From the NCBI GenBank assembly GCA_951406725.2, contig OX597839.1, positions 1,240,001 through 1,304,000 of the forward strand: DNA of 64,000 nt. The letters run 5' to 3'. The translations under genes were made by a program, and so were the position numbers. Positions 3,786-57,368 of this stretch are shown here, piece after piece (the first letter of the stretch is position 1; every line of letters begins with the position of its first letter). Under the pieces are notes generated by a model. The model was not told where the DNA came from. It saw only the letters and a list, made by a program, of their open reading frames with translations, and ran no database searches. The DNA is from Octopus vulgaris (Eukaryota).

Positions 3786-4524
3786 AGCGGCATTTCGTCT
3801 GTCTTTTCGTTCTTAGTTTGCCTTTTATCGTTCCGGGGTCGATAAAGAGATACTAGCTGAGTTCTGGGGTCGAGGTAATCTACTCTTCTCCTACCCTAAA
3901 TTACAGGCCTTGTACCAATAGTGGAAATGATTATTATTATTATTATTATTGCATGAATTACATCAATTAACAGAGATCAAATAGCATAATGCAAAAAGAG
4001 AGAGAAGCCAACACCTACGAATTCCATATCAAGGCACCATCCTCCATGTCCTTCTTGTAACATCCTTAATGAACTTATGTCACCGGACATTGTTACACGA
4101 TCACCTGATCTGAATCTTGACTGGAGTGCACCCATTACTCCCATTAAATCAAATTCACCTGATCCGACTGTTGACTCGGCTGCACCCATTGTTTCCGTAA
4201 ATTCCAATTCACCTGAAACCATAAGAATATATATATATATATATATATAGAAATTTAGCAATTAAGGACAACTACTTAATAAGGAAAACTTAATAAGAAA
4301 TTGTCAGGTAGATAGCGTGAAAACCTCATAAGAGAAAAAATTTCGAAAATAATTATTTCTTATTGAACATATTAATTTATATATAGAGGGCATTATACAT
4401 ACATGCCAGAAGGCATTATACATACATGCCACACGCTAAGAGGGACAATTAGTCATTTCTACCAAAAATATTACTAATCCCACCGAATGCAATTTTTCAA
4501 AGTAAGACATTTAAAAAATATAGA

Positions 4525-4566
4525 CCTGTATCACAGTGATTTCATACTTACGTATTCATCAGCAGG
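4525..4566 (-). ncRNA. Type I hammerhead ribozyme (family A)
   Basis: Reverse complement of CCTG-CTGATGA-ATAC-GTAA-GTAT-GAAA-TCAC-T-GTGA-TA-CAGG. Confidence 0.85.
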
Positions 4567-4915
4567 CCTGAATGTATTATAAATAAACAACGACCCTGCC
4601 CCGCTTAAGCCGATCAGCTAATTGATCAACATCAACGAAGCACATGGGTGAGTTTACATATATTACATCCGGATAAATGGCAAACTTTTACGAATTGACA
4701 ATTTCTTATTAAGTTTTCCTTATTAAGTAGTTGTCCTTAATTGCTAAATTTTTATTCTGAAAAAACTTTTCCTCTCCCGAAATGCAATTCGTAAAAGTTT
4801 GCCATTTATCCGGATGTAATATATGTAAACTCACCCATGTGCTTCGTTGATGTTGATCAGTTAGCTGATCGGCTTAAGCGGGGCAGGGTCGTTGTTTATT
4901 TATAATACATTCAGG

Positions 4916-4957
4916 CCTGCTGATGAATACGTAAGTATGAAATCACTGTGATACAGG
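4916..4957 (+). ncRNA. Type I hammerhead ribozyme (family A)
   Basis: Helix I CCTG/CAGG, CUGAUGA, helix II ATAC/GTAT with GUAA loop, GAAA, helix III TCAC/GTGA, AUA cleavage triplet. Confidence 0.85.
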
Positions 4958-5207
4958 TCTATATTTTTTAAATGTCTTACTTTGAAAAATTGCATTCGGT
5001 GGGATTAGTAATATTTTTGGTAGAAATGACTAATTGTCCCTCTTAGCGTGTGGCATGTATGTATAATGCCTTCTGGCATGTATGTATAATGCCCTCTATA
5101 TATAAATTTATATATATATATATATATACATACAGATAGAGTTTGATAGCTAGACAGGCAGTCAAATATATAGACAGATAGCTAGCTAGCTACCTAGATA
5201 GATAGAT

Positions 5208-17672: not shown

Positions 17673-17859
17673 TGTAGGTGTGTGTTCTAGTACATTTGTG
17701 TGTGTGCGTGTGTGTGTGTGCGTATGTGTGTGTGTGTGTGTGTGCGCGCTTGCATGCCTGCAAGAAAAGGAGATGACACAGGAAAAAGAAAGCATTTGGT
17801 ATGAACTTTATAACCTTACAACCATTTCTACTGTACGCTGAAGAGAATGAAAACAGACA

Positions 17860-18210
17860 AACTCTTGAAATTCAAAAGACTATTGAACAGCGTCAACCCA
17901 AACATACAGTTCAAAATGGAATACAACCAAAAGGAGCTACCATTTTGGATATACTAATTTAAAAAATAAACCTAAAAATAGAAACAGGCGTATTTTACAA
18001 AACCACAGACGCCAAACAATATCTACTGTTTAATCCATGCCACCCAAGACACACCAAAACAAACATCCCCTTCAACCTTGCAAAAAGTATATGCACAATA
18101 GTGTCAGAAAAAATACCAGAGACTTTTGACTGTAAGAACTCAAAAACACCCTGATTGACAGACACTACTCAATTCAACACATAGAGGATGGAATCGGACG
18201 TGTAACACAA
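17860..18210 (+). mobile_element. Penelope-like RT thumb fragment
   Basis: LNSVNPNIQFKME..LPF.D..FYKTTD..YL.FNPCHP.HTK.NIPF, frameshifted. Confidence 0.75.
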
Positions 18211-18339
18211 ATCATTTTTGGTCACTGTTTTTGAACACCTGTAAAAAATTGGAAAAGTAAAAAATAAAACGGATAGGTTTGTTCCACATCAACTGAACGA
18301 GATTAAATTGATTGTATGCATGAGAATTTGAAAAAGAAG

Positions 18340-24810: not shown

Positions 24811-24941
24811 CCTTTAGGCTGTATATCTGTATATACATTTGACCCATACATACACAGCTCTATTATGTTGTGATCCGAAACTAATGTCAGCGTCACGTTC
24901 ACATGATGAACGATGTCAATATTATATATATATATATGTAT

Positions 24942-24983
<42 letters not shown>

Positions 24984-25212
24984 TTAATCAATATAGGGTG
25001 GCAAAAAAAAAAATTTTGTAGAATTCCTTTTGCCACCAGCGGCCTAGTGGGAAAAAATTAAATAGTCATAGACCATTTTTAAGTTCAACATCAACAATCA
25101 AGGAACGGCCATAATAGGCCATTCACCCACTAGAAATAACAGCCAAAGCTTCAACCGCAAATAAAGATTAATTCCGTAAACAGAAGAAAATTTAAAAAAC
25201 ATTTACCCTGTA

Positions 25213-25319
25213 ATTTCTTGTACGATGCACCGTTTCATCTGCTGTTTAATGGTAAACTAACCTGATTAAATTAAATCAAGCCAATCTTCCATAGGCCCTC
25301 AGATTCTTCAGCAAGAAAT
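25213..25319 (-). ncRNA. Type I hammerhead ribozyme (family B, extended helix II)
   Basis: Reverse complement of the 26247-26353 motif; core intact. Confidence 0.85.
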
Positions 25320-26246
25320 AGCCAAGTCGGAACAGATATTTTCACGAGGCATTTCCGACCCTGCCAAGGCAATATCTGACCTAAAATTTTCAAATCGTCG
25401 CACTCGCGCCAAATTTATCGGCAGCAAATAAATATAAGCCGTCGATTCCATTACGGAATTAACCAGAAAATTCATAATTAATCAATATAGGGTGGCAAAA
25501 AAAATTTTGTAGAATTCCTTTTGCCACCAGCGGCCTAGTGGGAAAAAATTAAATAGTCATAGACCATTTTTAAGTTCAACATCAACAATCAAGGAACGGC
25601 CATAATAGGCCATTCACCCACTAGAAATAACAGCCAAAGCCTCAACCGCAAATAAAGATTAATTCCGTAAACAGGAGAAAATTTAAAAAACATTTACCCT
25701 GTAATTTCTTGTACGATGCACCGTTTAATCTGCTGTTTAATGGTAAACTAACCTGATTAAATTAAATCAAGCCAATCTTCCATAGGCCCTCAGATTCTTC
25801 AGCAATTTAATCAGGTTAGTTTACCATTAAACAGCAGATGAAACGGTGCATCGTACAAGAAATTACAGGGTAAATGTTTTTTAAATTTTCTCCTGTTTAC
25901 GGAATTAATCTTTATTTGCGGTTGAAGCTTTGGCTGTTATTTCTAGTGGGTGAATGGCCTATTATGGCCGTTCCTTGATTGTTGATGTTGAACTTAAAAA
26001 TGGTCTATGACTATTTAATTTTTTCCCACTAGGCCGCTGGTGGCAAAAGGAATTCTACAAAATTTTTTTGCCACCCTATATTGATTAATTATGAATTTTC
26101 TGGTTAATTCCGTAATGGAATCGACGGCTTATATTTATTTGCTGCCGATAAATTTGGCGCGAGTGCGACGATTTGAAAATTTTAGGTCAGATATTGCCTT
26201 GGCAGGGTCGGAAATGCCTCGTGAAAATATCTGTTCCGACTTGGCT

Positions 26247-26353
26247 ATTTCTTGCTGAAGAATCTGAGGGCCTATGGAAGATTGGCTTGATTTAATTTAA
26301 TCAGGTTAGTTTACCATTAAACAGCAGATGAAACGGTGCATCGTACAAGAAAT
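26247..26353 (+). ncRNA. Type I hammerhead ribozyme (family B, extended helix II)
   Basis: ATTTCTTG-CTGAAGA-ATCTG..~58 nt..CAGAT-GAAA-CGGTGCATCG-TA-CAAGAAAT. 8-bp helix I, GUA triplet. Confidence 0.85.
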
Positions 26354-26807
26354 TACAGGGTAAATGTTTTTTAAATTTTCTCCTGTTTACGGAATTAATC
26401 TTTATTTGCGGTTGAAGCTTTGGCTGTTATTTCTAGTGGGTGAATGGCCTATTATGGCCGTTCCTTGATTGTTGATGGTATACATATATATATATATATA
26501 CATATACATACATATATATATACATATATATATATATACATATACATATACATATATATATATTTATATATATACATATATATATATATATGTGTGTGTG
26601 TCTAATGTAGGATAAAAGTTTTTTCGAAAAACATTTTATCAATGGCCAGCATATTAAAAAATACCTTTAAAGGTTAAATTATAAACAACTTATAAATAAG
26701 GGCAAACGAAAACATCTCTAATGCCAAATATTCCGAAAATTGGACATAATGTCCATTTACCATATAATTTTTTTAGGTCGACAGAAATCTCTAAAAAATT
26801 CCATTAT

Positions 26808-26866
26808 TACCATATCGGACCGATTTCAGGGTTAGTTCAAAAAGAACCCTCCCTTCGTCAGTGATA
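26808..26866 (-). ncRNA. Type I hammerhead ribozyme (family D)
   Basis: TATCA-CTGACGA-AGGG..CCCT-GAAA-TCGGTCCGA-TA-TGGTA. Confidence 0.8.
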
Positions 26867-27034
26867 CATGTGGCAAAGAAGTAAATGCGATACTTACTCA
26901 TGGAAGAAGCAAACACTAAGTCATGAGCACAACTAAGTACCCCCAAAAATCTAAAATAGAAATAATCGGTCCGATATGGTAATAATGGAATTTTTTAGAG
27001 ATTTCTGTCGACCTTTTTCGAGTAGTGTGCGTAC

Positions 27035-27654
27035 AGTGATTGCATCATCCACACTCTCAACAGTGCGCCTTTAAATATGGTTTCTGATTATAAATATCTT
27101 GGGTCATACATATCATCATCTGGAAAAGACTTTCTAACTAGAAAGGGTATGGCCTGGTCAGCCTGTAATGACATGCATAAGATCTGGTCATCAAATCTCA
27201 GTAGAGACTTCAAACTTGAAATATTCAAAGCCACAATCCAACCAATTCTACTATATGGCTCAGAAACCTGGACGTTATCAAAGAAGCTTGAGAGGCGGTT
27301 GGATGGAACCTACACTCGCCTCCTTATGAGAGCTCAAAATCTCTCGTGGAAGCGCCATCCAACCAAAATGCAAATATATGGGAAATTACCACCTGTGTCA
27401 TCTCTTGTGAAAGGTATGAGAGTCCAGTTTACTGGACATTGTTGTAGAGCCGAAAAAGAAGTAATTTCTACTCTTCTCCTCTGGAAGCCATCTACTCGCA
27501 ATGCCAGAGGGCGCACACTCTCCTACCCTGATGTAATCTCCAGGGATACAGGCATCTAGCAACAGAACCTCCGTAATGCTATGATGGACCGTGAAGTCTT
27601 GTGTAACATAGTAAATTCCATTGTCTCGACCACGGTCGAACAATGATGATGATG
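27035..27654 (+). mobile_element. 5'-truncated RTE-like LINE with target-site duplication
   Basis: ORF 27077-27559 (YKYLGS..LLYGSETW..FTGH), (GAT)n tail, and TSD AGTGTGCGTAC at 27024-27034 and 27655-27665. Confidence 0.9.
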
Positions 27655-27772
27655 AGTGTGCGTACTGGGAAAAAGATTATATGGTAAATGGACAATATGT
27701 CCAATTTTCGGCATATTTGGCATTAGAAATTTTTTCGTTTGCCCTTATTTATAAGTTGTATATATATATATA

Positions 27773-31272: not shown

Positions 31273-31312
<40 letters not shown>

Positions 31313-31579
31313 CAATTAAGGACAACTACTTAATAAGGAAAACTTAACAAGAAATTGTCAGGTAGATAGCGTGAAAACCTCATAAGAGAAAAAATTTCGA
31401 AAATAATTATTTCTTATTGAACATATTAATTTATATATAGAGGGCATTATACATACATGCAAGAAGGCATTATACATACATGCCACACGCTAAGAGGGAC
31501 AATTAGTCATTTCTACCAAAAATATTACTAATCCCACCGAATGCAATTTTTCAAAGTAAGACATTTAAAAAAATATAGA

Positions 31580-31621
31580 CCTGTATCACAGTGATTTCAT
31601 ACTTACGTATTCATCAGCAGG
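31580..31621 (-). ncRNA. Type I hammerhead ribozyme (family A)
   Basis: Reverse complement of the intact 42-nt motif. Confidence 0.85.
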
Positions 31622-32157
31622 CCTGAATGTATTATAAATAAACAACGACCCTGCCCCGCTTAAGCCGATCAGCTAACTGATCAACATCAACGAAGCACAT
31701 GGGTGAGTTTACATATATTACATCCGGATAAATGGCAAACTTTTACGAATTGCATTTCGGGTGGGATTAGTAATATTTTTGGTAGAAATGACTAATTGTC
31801 CCTCTTAGCGTGTGGCATGTATGTATAATGCCTTCTGGCATGTATGTATAATGCCCTCTATATATAAATTAATATGTTCAATAAGAAATAATTATTTTCG
31901 AAATTTTTTCTCTTATGAGGTTTTCACGCTATCTACCTGACAATTTCTTGTTAAGTTTTCCTTATTAAGTAGTTGTCCTTAATTGCTAAATTTTTATTCC
32001 GAAAAAACTTTTCCTCTCCCGAAATGCAATTCGTAAAAGTTTGCCATTTATCCGGATGTAATATATGTAAACTCACCCATGTGCTTCGTTGATGTTGATC
32101 AGTTAGCTGATCGGCTTTAGCGGGGCAGGGTCGTTGTTTATTTATAATACATTCAGG

Positions 32158-32199
32158 CCTGCTGATGAATACGTAAGTATGAAATCACTGTGATACAGG
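32158..32199 (+). ncRNA. Type I hammerhead ribozyme (family A, copy 1)
   Basis: CCTG-CTGATGA-ATACGTAAGTAT-GAAA-TCACTGTGA-TA-CAGG. Confidence 0.88.
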
Positions 32200-32638
32200 T
32201 CTATATTTTTTTAAATGTCTTACTTTGAAAAATTGCATTCGGTGGGATTAGTAATATTTTTGGTAGAAATGACTAATTGTCCCTCTTAGCGTGTGGCATG
32301 TATGTATAATGCCTTCTGGCATGTATGTATAATGCCCGCTATATATAAATTAATATGTTCATTAAGAAATAATTATTTTCGAAATTTTTTCTCTTATGAG
32401 GTTTTCACGCTATCTACCTGACAATTTCTTGTTAAGTTTTCCTTATTAAGTAGTTGTCCTTAATTGCTAAATTTTTATTCCGAAAAAACTTTTCCTCTCC
32501 CGAAATGCAATTCGTAAAAGTTTGCCATTTATCCGGATGTAATATATGTAAACTCACCCATGTGCTTCGTTGATGTTGATCAGTTAGCTGATCGGCTTAA
32601 GCGGGGCAGGGTCGTTGTTTATTTATAATACATTCAGG

Positions 32639-32680
32639 CCTGCTGATGAATACGTAAGTATGAAATCACTGTGATACAGG
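32639..32680 (+). ncRNA. Type I hammerhead ribozyme (family A, copy 2)
   Basis: Identical motif. Confidence 0.88.
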
Positions 32681-33119
32681 TCTATATTTTTTTAAATGTC
32701 TTACTTTGAAAAATTGCATTCGGTGGGATTAGTAATATTTTTGGTAGAAATGACTAATTGTCCCTCTTAGCGTGTGGCATGTATGTATAATGCCTTCTGG
32801 CATGTATGTATAATGCCCTCTAAATATAAATTAATATGTTCAATAAGAAATAATTATTTTCGAAATTTTTTCTCTTATGAGGTTTTCACGCTATCTACCT
32901 GACAATTTCTTGTTAAGTTTTCCTTATTAAGTAGTTGTCCTTAATTGCTAAATTTTTATTCCGAAAAAACTTTTCCTCTCCCGAAATGCAATTCGTAAAA
33001 GTTTGCCATTTATCCGGATGTAATATATGTAAACTCACCCATGTGCTTCGTTGATGTTGATCAGTTAGCCGATCGGCTTAAGCGGGGCAGGGTCGTTGTT
33101 TATTTATAATACATTCAGG

Positions 33120-33161
33120 CCTGCTGATGAATACGTAAGTATGAAATCACTGTGATACAGG
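33120..33161 (+). ncRNA. Type I hammerhead ribozyme (family A, copy 3)
   Basis: Identical motif. Confidence 0.88.
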
Positions 33162-33600
33162 TCTATATTTTTTTAAATGTCTTACTTTGAAAAATTGCAT
33201 TCGGTGGGATTAGTAATATTTTTGGTAGAAATGACTAATTGTCCCTCTTAGCGTGTGGCATGTATGTATAATGCCTTCTGGCATGTATGTATAATGCCCG
33301 CTATATATAAATTAATATGTTCAATAAGAAATAATTATTTTCGAAATTTTTTCTCTTATGAGGTTTTCACGCTATCTACCTGACAATTTCTTGTTAAGTT
33401 TTCCTTATTAAGTAGTTGTCCTTAATTGCTAAATTTTTATTCCGAAAAAACTTTTCCTCTCCCGAAATGCAATTCGTAAAAGTTTGCCATTTATCCGGAT
33501 GTAATATATGTAAACTCACCCATGTGCTTCGTTGATGTTGATCAGTTAGCTGATCGGCTTAAGCGGGGCAGGGTCGTTGTTTATTTATAATACATTCAGG

Positions 33601-33642
33601 CCTGCTGATGAATACGTAAGTATGAAATCACTGTGATACAGG
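33601..33642 (+). ncRNA. Type I hammerhead ribozyme (family A, copy 4)
   Basis: Identical motif. Confidence 0.88.
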
Positions 33643-33782
33643 TCTATATTTTTTTAAATGTCTTACTTTGAAAAATTGCATTCGGTGGGATTAGTAATAT
33701 TTTTGGTAGAAATGACTAATTGTCCCTCTTAGCGTGTGGCATGTATGTATAATGCCTTCTGGCATGTATGTATAATGCCCTC

Positions 33783-33836
<54 letters not shown>

Positions 33837-35805: not shown

Positions 35806-37280
35806 GGGAAAGTGAAAAAAACGAAACTCGTCAATAAGACATTTTAGCAAAAAATGATGGATTTGTATAGCGATAGACAGAACGCTATTAATATTGTTTA
35901 AAAAAACGTTATATGATATAACGTCATAAGTAGGTAACAGAAAGAGTAGGGATATTAATAGTGAATGTTAAATATAAAGGAAATTAAAGTTTAAATTATA
36001 TATAATGATAGAGACTACTTATAAGCGAATGAAGGCAGATAACCCTTATTTAATCCCCTATTATAGATCTAAAAGTAAATATAACACCTTCAAAAGTAAT
36101 TACGCTATGAATACTAGTAAAAATATTTGGTTAATAATCCCTTACGGGAGACAAATTAAATCTAATCTCCCACTGCTGTTTCGTCAAGCTATTGCTAGGA
36201 ATTTTCCAAACAATTCTAGATATTACTCTATAATTAATTCACATAAGGTTAGGATAGGTTTTTCAAACACAAAATATCTCTTGCAAATTATATCTTCTCA
36301 TAATAACAAACTGTTAAATATTAATACATTTACTAATACTAACATTAATTTAGCTAATACCATCCAACCCTCTAGAAATATTAATAACAAGGTTATTGTA
36401 TCTGAAGTCAATTCCAATAGAATTAAGTTTATGTCAAGTAACTCTAAGGTTAAAAATTCTATATACCAGTGTATAATCAGTACTCGTAATAAAGTACGAT
36501 TTTACATTGGAAGCATATCGTTAGAGTTATCTAAAAGAATTTCTATCCATTACTCAACATTTAGGGATAGAAATAAACGGAATAGTACCGGTCTCAGCAA
36601 ACTGATTTGGGATTTAAAAGATCACAATGAACAATTTCATTTAGAATGGTTGACACTCTCAATTTCGATACCATATGACAAAGGCGAGAAATTCTGTCTT
36701 CTCTGCAATTCTGAGCTTCTAAAAATACTCTAGTAAACACGGTTATAGAGCGAGCATACAGATGTAAGCATTGGCAAAAACATACATTTAGTGCATATAA
36801 GTAGTCTCTATCATTATATATAATTTAAACTTTAATTTCCATTATATTTAACATTCACTATTAATATCCCTACTCTTTCTGTTAGCTACTTATGACGTTA
36901 TATCATAAAACGTTTTTGTAAACAATATTAATAGCGTTCTGTCTATCGCTATACAAATCCATAATTTTTTTGCTAAAATGGCTTATTGACGAGTTTCGTT
37001 TTTTTCACTTTCCCGAAGAGAAGATTGCATTGTTTATACCATTTATTCTTTTGAATAGTATCAGTGGAATTTTCGAAAAATGTGTCGAAAGTAAAAATAT
37101 TTGTTTACACCTGCGTTAACTCCATTTTTTATTCATATTATTCAAATATTCAACGTAAACACGAAGTTTCTACCTTTATAAACAAGGAGTTACAACACCT
37201 TTACTTGTGAGATTTTTGCTGCCCTGGTAACTATTTATTTATTTTTCCGTGTTAATTGTTAACAAGGTAAAAATACACTC

Positions 37281-56844: not shown

Positions 56845-57368
56845 GGTGCTGAAATGTTGCTGGCTATGGTGGCGGTGGCGATGCTGGTGGTTGTGGCGGT
56901 GGCGGTGGCGTTGTTGGCGGTGGCGTTGTTGGAGGTGGTAGTGGTGGTGGTGGCGGTGGTTGTGGCGGCGGCGGCGTTGTTGGCGGTGGCGTTGGTGGCG
57001 TTGGTGGCGGTGGTGGCGGTGGTGGTGGTGGCGGTGGTGGTGGTTGTGGTGGTGGTGGCGGTGGTGGCGGTGGTGGCGATGGCGTTGGTGGTGATGGAGG
57101 TAGTGGTGGTTGTGGTGGTGGTGGCGGTGGTGGTGGCGGCGCCGGTGGCTGTGGTGGCGGTGGCTGTTGTGGTGGTGGTGGTGGTGGTGGTGGCGGTGGT
57201 GGTGGCGGTGGTGGTGATGGCGGTGGTTGTGGTGGTGGCGGTAGCTGTTGTGGTGGTGGTGGTGGTGGTGGTGGTGGTGGCGGCGGCGGTGGCTGTGGTG
57301 GCGGTGGCTGTGGTGGCGGCGGCTGTTGTGGTGGTGGTGGTGGTGGTGGTGGCGGTGGTGGCGGTGGA
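56845..57368. repeat. (GGT/GGC)n low-complexity repeat, opposite orientation to the large satellite
   Basis: Read directly. Confidence 0.9.

Follow-up and report, generated by a model that had tools for sequence, protein, structure and literature searches.

The window, the whole stretch of 64,000 nucleotides of Octopus vulgaris DNA analysed here, carries at 24984-26477 a member of a non-coding repeat family (family B) with a unit of ~490 nt and a type I hammerhead ribozyme (HHR) in each full unit. The element consists of two divergent arms and is bounded on both sides by (TA)n tracts. It contains about three unit-lengths, two of them full units that are one substitution and one indel apart, and its two outer ends are not equivalent, one lying at monomer position ~131 and the other at ~237. 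In the numbering used below, position 1 of the monomer is the predicted cleavage site and the reference unit is 25856-26345 on the + strand. The parts of the element are as follows.

24919-24983: (TA)n target tract, left
24984-25805, - strand: long-end (L) arm, monomer 397-490, 1-490 and 1-237; its 3' end at ~237 faces the TA tract
25213-25319, - strand: intact type I hammerhead
25221-25711, - strand: second full monomer, 491 nt
25704-25805, - strand: broken hammerhead, with G12-to-T at 25727; the junction removes most of the 5' strand of helix I
25804-25805: head-to-head (5'-to-5') inversion junction, overlap 2 nt
25804-25863, + strand: partial hammerhead, starting in the apical loop of the helix II extension
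25804-26477, + strand: short-end (S) arm, monomer 439-490, 1-490 and 1-132; its 3' end at ~131-132 faces the TA tract
25856-26345, + strand: full 490-nt monomer, cleavage site to cleavage site; GC 37%; longest stop-free frame 57 codons (six frames, concatemer)
25952-25973, + strand: hairpin ~13 nt upstream of the S register, repeated at 26442-26463 in the last partial unit
25987-26092, + strand: 'tail' between the S and L registers, monomer 132-237
26026-26041, + strand: tail block of 16 nt, identical in the sister family
26039-26075, + strand: tail hairpin, 17 nt upstream of L
26247-26353, + strand: intact type I hammerhead, predicted cleavage after 26345
26267-26324, + strand: 58-nt helix II extension, with a 17-bp interrupted hairpin at 26275-26316
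26290-26301, + strand: apex (12 nt) of the helix II extension, with the same sequence in the sister family
26334-26343, + strand: palindromic helix III, predicted to be stable only when two hammerheads form an intermolecular duplex
26479-26591: (TA)n target tract, right

Both intact hammerheads show the anatomy given in an earlier note on this DNA (CUGAAGA, an 8-bp helix I, an insert of ~58 nt with its own hairpin and a near-palindromic helix III). The damage it had described in the copy at 25704-25805, GAAA changed to TAAA and truncation by the junction, is likewise found, as the G12-to-T change and the cut 5' strand of helix I.

Other repeats lie nearby. Family A, a hammerhead family with a 481-nt unit that is considered further below, occupies 4240-5110 and 31310-33790; its unit is no more similar to that of family B than chance allows (84/200 shuffles score as high), in agreement with what the earlier note had judged. 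A terminal motif common to the two families looked plausible by eye and was discarded, as unit similarity is at chance and the motifs stand in opposite order. A third hammerhead element adjoins family B on the right (26593-27764), with an HHR at 26808-26866 (- strand), a 27-nt helix II domain and head-to-head arms (inverted repeat 26680-26774 / 27670-27764). It is split by a LINE-like fragment of ~620 nt, which has a 10-nt target duplication and a (TGA)n tail and which we take to be RTE-like, and HHRs related to its own occur at L081/L101. Fragments of a Neptune-type reverse transcriptase (RT) and of a Hydra-type endonuclease are present at 17856-18213 and 36455-36730. Between 42876 and 55575 there is a 12.7-kb GC-rich (CCACCA)n-type repeat of extreme skew, with an opposite-strand block at 56867-57367; this repeat may encode a Gly- or Pro-rich protein.

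Family B across the genome

The genome searched comprises 2.8 Gb in 227 contigs. Matches to the family B ribozyme number 2,151 with a core pattern and 2,997 with a looser one, and the reversed-pattern control gave 0 for both. Copies are dispersed over many contigs and arms reach 10 tandem units, so the earlier description of a tandem family holds genome-wide; the window itself has only ~3 unit-lengths. Sixty-seven loci were analysed: the window, 39 best-hit loci (40 of 1,382 candidates were scored) and 28 pattern loci drawn from the first 100 core-pattern matches listed, 8 of them automatically and 20 picked for divergence. One locus (L033) was excluded as a duplicate of another (L032), as were clipped or repeated loci (L116-123, L125, L132-138, L140-145). 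The sample is biased to young, long copies and to contig C1.

A sister family of retrozymes (L236-L239) has a 474-nt unit, 72% identical to that of family B, and a GUC cleavage site. Searching with the conserved tail block gave 1,462 matches, and the 100 listed were all family B or sister; one odd match proved to be another truncated copy. Metagenome and viral contigs, searched at exact-match sensitivity, contained no match and gave no sign of an exogenous viroid-like source. The family B unit is present in sequencing runs under 4 organism labels from 6 studies, and it may therefore extend beyond one species; none of the runs with the unit is recorded as RNA. Assembled contigs of four sequencing runs, three of which are only guessed to be RNA, include in one run a single 521-nt contig equal to one unit plus overlap, a form expected from tandem DNA as well as from a circle.

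The hammerhead and its extended helix II

The intact family B HHRs are composed of an 8-bp helix I, CUGAAGA, a 5-bp basal helix II enclosing 58 nt, GAAA, CGGUGCAUCG and a GUA cleavage triplet. This region folds better than 200/200 shuffles (z -4.07), and the monomer folds better than 100/100 (z -4.72), with 61% paired as a circle. For helix III the computed energy is about -0.1 kcal/mol as a monomer hairpin vs -17.5 as a dimer duplex, which bears out the suggestion that the palindrome permits dimeric folding. With the hairpin so weak and the duplex so strong, cleavage would most likely need a dimer, a requirement described for other animal type I HHRs (PMC4209133, PMC6765202).

Selection on this fold can be followed through the 67 loci. 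Core variation is confined to N7 (A41/U10/C9/G7) and N17 (A60/C7), an invariance that is partly built in, since a core pattern served to retrieve the sister family and 28 of the loci. Both N7 and N17 are permissive positions of the hammerhead core. Independent of the search pattern are three sites at which paired bases change together: pair 399:1 in helix I (G-C 5, A-U 62), pair 411:470 in helix II (G-C 42, A-U 22, G-U 1, A·A 2) and the centre of the helix III palindrome (GC 36, AU 27, mismatch AC 4). The covariation analysis of copies that the earlier note had proposed was done on 14 hand-picked diverse copies, in which 98.4% of 502 cells are paired. In the same copies 7/36 pairs change on both sides vs 0/500 shuffles, although a single divergent copy accounts for several of these changes and scores of this kind are inflated by relatedness. 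The sister HHR has a different basal helix II and a perfect helix III palindrome, and its extension hairpin is that of family B with wobbles turned into Watson-Crick pairs, one G-C turned into A-U and an identical 12-nt apex, this apex being one of 9 identical blocks between the two families. In these alignments, sister family included, helices I, II and III appear to be supported by compensatory changes, as does the extension, a conserved hairpin. Within family B, six pairs of the extension hairpin vary on one side and 0 on both, and the stem has no significant excess conservation at site level (2/43 vs 53/383 polymorphic sites, p 0.10).

The family B ribozyme departs from the consensus at one pair of helix II, 10.1-11.1, which is A-U in 66/67 loci vs the canonical G10.1-C11.1. 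The same pair is G-U in one subfamily and an unpaired A/A in the sister family. Against Rfam RF00163 (Hammerhead_1) the HHR scores 15.9 bits vs a gathering threshold of 34, and an Rfam scan of the whole window at E<=0.1 returned no HHR, with only miRNA-like noise on inverted repeats. Taken together, the comparative evidence supports the view that the family B HHR is a genuine type I hammerhead under structural selection.

The long helix II, which the earlier note had singled out in this family, turns out to be widespread. A pattern requiring a type I core, a helix II domain of 45-75 nt and a helix III of 6 nt has 7,513 matches in the genome (control 6), in a search whose helix III part excludes family B and whose length range is partly set by the pattern. 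Thirty of these loci were inspected. They sort into several groups, all unlike family B in sequence, whose inserts of 55-72 nt form hairpins; most of the 30 are single copies or inverted pairs, not tandems. The genome total of hammerhead-like motifs with long helix II domains comes to about 10,000. Ribozymes of this kind are easily missed, given the low Rfam score and the limit on the spacer (<=17 nt) in one published HHR descriptor (PMC8557442). As to what the extension does, there is about an even chance that it is a stabilising or protein-recognised stem inherited from the terminal-repeat ribozymes carried by Penelope-like elements (PLEs). An insertion that is merely tolerated is possible and somewhat less probable than that; a tertiary contact with helix I is quite unlikely.

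Paired insertion ends and the copying of family B

The 67 loci contain 70 insertions, 55 head-to-head and 15 single-armed. Their arms do not end at the cleavage site. Outer ends lie at two registers ~106 nt apart, with 59 of the 125 at S (123-137) and 58 at L (227-246), a total of 117/125 within windows that were set after seeing the data and together make up 7% of the unit. The two registers are used in combination: among the 55 head-to-head insertions 47 are S+L, 1 is L+L, 0 are S+S and 7 have one off-register end, which gives S+L pairing in 47/48 classifiable cases (binomial p 2e-13). Each register lies 13-17 nt downstream of a hairpin. Both are kept in the sister family (S 126-128, L 224-230) and also at a 79%-identical locus without any HHR, and other long-helix groups have end spacings of 100-120 nt (37/137, 37/155, 50/155, 61/164). 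By inspection of flanks, with no formal count, nearly all loci have TA tracts next to their S and L ends. The 5' breakpoints of the arms fit a uniform distribution (KS p 0.68, 0.21), with no enrichment at the cleavage site, and the overlap at the junction is 0-3 nt in 22/43 junctions.

The inversion, the TA flanks and the two end registers correspond to the known insertion signature of PLEs. Published PLE insertions have an inverted 5'-truncated copy and a tail of 30-40 nt, often at one end only (PMC8557442, PMC3846280), and a (TA)n bias is known for them (PMC8557442). The PLE protein of Anolis cuts and extends both strands of AT-rich DNA, is predicted to act as a dimer and initiates reverse transcription from two internal positions, one at either end of the tail (PMC11167929). 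By analogy, the S-to-L interval of family B is a putative PLE 'tail' between two reverse-transcription start sites.

We consider it probable that family B is a non-autonomous retrozyme of the non-LTR type and that a PLE mobilises it in trans. Arrays would be transcribed as multimers, in which neighbouring HHRs would pair through the palindromic helix III and then cleave, and ligation would close the monomer into a circle of ~490 nt, a step demonstrated for other animal retrozymes. The PLE endonuclease would cut a (TA)n tract on both strands, and each DNA 3' end would be extended by the RT on the same RNA from internal starts, site S serving one end and site L the other. Each cDNA would run round the template for 0.05-10 units before the two cDNA ends are joined, presumably by 0-3-nt microhomology. 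Counting against this explanation are the A-U pair at 10.1-11.1, the lack of a coding PLE homologue among 76 loci and work in vitro: the Anolis PLE used uncleaved RNA and its start sites did not differ between strands (PMC11167929), and for 8/9 of the Xenopus retrozymes assayed no cleavage was seen (bioRxiv 2026.07.22.740005).

The nature of the template can be approached through sequence variants. The two arms of an insertion share a haplotype, with agreement in 1,956/1,969 diagnostic cells vs 31% discordance with random loci, and 7 of the 13 discordant cells come from two mis-paired or mis-aligned loci. However, the nearest other locus differs at only 36/2,107 cells (1.7%), and a shared haplotype therefore does not prove one RNA molecule. 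Of 134 single-unit variants, 75 fall in a unit that is also present in the other arm and are not shared by it, and ~2 are shared in register, as expected if units were identical when copied. Together with arms of up to 10 units, this pattern of variants favours a monomer circle as the usual template. Circular retrozyme RNA is reported from coral, mussel and axolotl (PMC7229834). Some loci behave differently. At L038 one rearranged unit is present in both arms, and at L034 and L147 variants recur in several units with period 2 along the arm, one of them alternating over 10 units at L034 (nominal P 0.008), suggesting a dimer template or DNA-level duplication in these two. Multimeric templates or later DNA exchange thus occur.

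The strongest rival retains PLE-driven insertion from two starts and replaces the circle with an uncleaved linear multimer, the HHR being slow or protein-dependent and circles playing no part. We hold this to be unlikely, though it is the one alternative of real weight. Uncleaved RNA was the main substrate of the Anolis PLE in vitro (PMC11167929). A linear template would also accommodate the rearranged unit in both arms of L038, a variant in unit 2 of both arms at L039, the instability of helix III in a monomer and L241, which shows that a copy need not contain an HHR. However, arrays cannot grow by 5'-truncated copying of a linear RNA, and arms of up to 10 units exist; variants specific to one unit seldom recur in register (~2 vs 75); and both monomer-wide pairing and selection on the HHR persist in a sister family that is 72% identical.

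Amplification at the DNA level is far less probable. Here the ribozyme would be a passenger in a satellite, amplified through unequal exchange, fold-back or break-induced replication at TA tracts. Tandem arrays are what a satellite would give, the period-2 alternation of L034 and the variants shared within long arrays fit DNA duplication, and L032 and L033 have a common junction. Left unexplained are the two fixed ends and their 47:1 pairing, the sense-outward polarity, the dispersal over many contigs and the compensatory changes in the HHR.

Self-priming on an antisense template was proposed for head-to-head inserts with junction palindromes in rotifer Penelope elements (PMC3846280), but as the origin of the head-to-head structure here it is barely credible, since the fixed 3' registers match the sense-strand start sites observed in vitro (PMC11167929). 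Nearly equal breakpoints in both arms are seen at a few junctions (L051, L147, L150), but the offset between the 5' breakpoints of the two arms is uniform over the monomer (KS p 0.61), and fold-back junctions are therefore the exception. Twin priming yields 5' inversions with microhomology and LINE fragments lie nearby, but a SINE-like element moved by a LINE (RTE/L1/CR1) has equally little chance of being the answer: in twin priming the internal site varies and the segments do not overlap, whereas here the sites are fixed and the arms overlap by several units, and the unit encodes no poly(A) or simple-repeat tail.

Candidate partners and known systems

If family B is mobilised by a PLE, candidate partners are present in the same genome. 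Two loci, L231 and L235 (G000:C1:40704800-40712500; C2:37616900-37623400), are arranged as HHR, intact 981-aa ORF, HHR and (TA)n. The ORF carries the diagnostics of Hydra-clade PLEs (RWK, DKT, CxCx5C, CxxC, CxH) and by eye resembles Hydra-1_Obim. The element has an HHR with a 60-nt helix II in both terminal repeats, S/L ends at +37/+155, a 118-nt tail and (TA)n targets. An Atlas search with the ORF returned rotifer-rich clusters with HTH_animal/RVT_1 shares; Pfam does not recognise it, and a PDB search was empty. This PLE is young and abundant, with many copies 97-100% identical and 18,356 first-look candidates, and its protein has long inserts rich in asparagine, comparable to the N-rich ones in rotifer Penelopes. 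Its terminal repeat and tail have no similarity to family B (457/500 shuffles as good).

A Neptune-type PLE (L100-L107, L110, L115) has an intact 781-aa ORF, an upstream ORF, a tail of ~38 nt and (TA)n targets. Near its 3' end is a possible variant hammerhead core, and at L102 ~620 nt are inserted within the tail. A second Neptune-like family (L171, L196, L201-L230; 16,534 candidates) has a pyrimidine-rich 3' region and a variant hammerhead core. Among 76 PLE loci (46 GIY-YIG and 30 of the second Neptune-like family), a small sample of thousands of candidates, no coding PLE is homologous to family B. Two of the 76 held family B copies, both of them separate insertions, and the adjacency of PLEs at L150, L171 and L078, considered as evidence of partnership, also proved to reflect separate insertions.

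The family B tail of ~106 nt is unlike the ~38-nt Neptune tail, and tail length and helix II type, the only two features used, lead to a Hydra assignment of the driver. On this sequence evidence the odds are about even between a Hydra-clade PLE and Neptune, Naiad or another clade. A more specific version is doubtful: one Hydra-clade RT dimer would sit on a single circular RNA and prime both ends of a cut (TA)n tract, with one subunit always at S, the other at L and both rolling round the circle, and the long helix II hairpin, common to thousands of ribozymes, would be what the PLE protein uses to recognise or activate the ribozyme.

Family A offers a parallel within the genome. It has tandem units, head-to-head arms, (TA)n and two end registers after hairpins, as family B does; unlike family B, its helix II is short (12 nt). 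Each of its loci in the window ends long (~275) on one side and short (~155) on the other, in (TA)n; each end is downstream of a hairpin, and the registers are about 120 nt apart. Genome-wide there are 1,369 candidates, many of whose loci end at 275-283; diverged relatives (~70%) occur at L077, L109, L114 and L179. The architecture common to A and B is better explained by PLE machinery in common than by convergence on size. The convergence on ~0.5-kb monomers proposed in the earlier note rests on two families and a homologous sister (481, 490 and 474 nt) and is weakened by the range of published animal retrozyme units, 51-972 bp (bioRxiv 2026.07.22.740005). The pairing of the ends is more informative than that note saw, and the extension less special than it held.

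Among known systems, family B fits the non-LTR retrozymes, whose class features were found wherever sequence could be used to look for them. As described in PMC7229834 and bioRxiv 10.64898/2026.07.22.740005, the metazoan members are likewise non-coding, low-GC tandem units with a type I HHR, a self-paired monomer, a dimer-type helix III and co-occurring PLEs. For this class GC is below 45% and the unit non-coding, and family B has 37% GC; autonomous PLEs belong in the same genome, and here there are 781-aa Neptune-type and 981-aa Hydra-type ORFs. The 490-nt unit exceeds the 170-400 nt given in PMC7229834 and falls within the 51-972 bp of bioRxiv 10.64898/2026.07.22.740005. The helix II domain of 68 nt contrasts with about 4 bp and a loop in the metazoan elements, and head-to-head arms, (TA)n targeting and two fixed ends are features of family B that do not figure in the available descriptions of that class. 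The LTR retrozymes of plants, with type III HHRs in their LTRs and a PBS/PPT, were rejected as a home for family B, which has type I topology and no LTR pair around a unique core.

The hammerhead itself resembles RF00163 and the min-HHRs of newt/axolotl satellites and PLEs in its CUGANGA/GAAA/NUH core and its palindromic, dimer-needing helix III (PMC4209133), and differs from them in the A-U pair at 10.1-11.1, the long helix II hairpin and the sub-threshold Rfam score, and perhaps in having no canonical loop 1/loop 2 contact. A partial precedent for the extended helix II is the HHR of the spike moss PLE-X1, described with a 9-bp stem and a 35-nt loop II. Hydra-clade PLEs (Craig et al. 2021) share with family B the (TA)n targets and an HHR, theirs in the terminal repeat; those published Hydra HHRs that were compared have a loop II of 4-9 nt (PMC8557442 supplement), unlike the 60-nt domain of the L231/L235 PLE. 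A literature search that covered few subscription papers returned no octopus retrozymes, no paired short and long retrozyme ends and no type I HHRs of animals whose helix II domain measures 55-70 nt.

PLE insertions as described (PMC8557442, PMC3846280, PMC11167929) are like family B in their inverted partner arm, one-end tail, AT-rich target and ends downstream of the HHR. In family B, by contrast, there is no ORF and the entire element is the repeated ribozyme unit; its tail is ~106 nt vs 30-40 nt in the published PLEs, and its end pairing is near-obligate. A PLE origin of animal retrozymes has already been argued (bioRxiv 10.64898/2026.07.22.740005). As for their copying, mobilisation by PLEs has so far been argued from co-occurrence and from terminal-repeat homology; in family B the insertion ends themselves bear the PLE signature, in a family without an ORF. 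The near-obligate S/L pairing suggests that the two start sites known in vitro act jointly, each at one of the DNA ends, and so constrains the mechanism of PLEs. Since one genome offers both an RNA of 490 nt, its two start sites mapped, and an intact candidate enzyme, this is directly testable.
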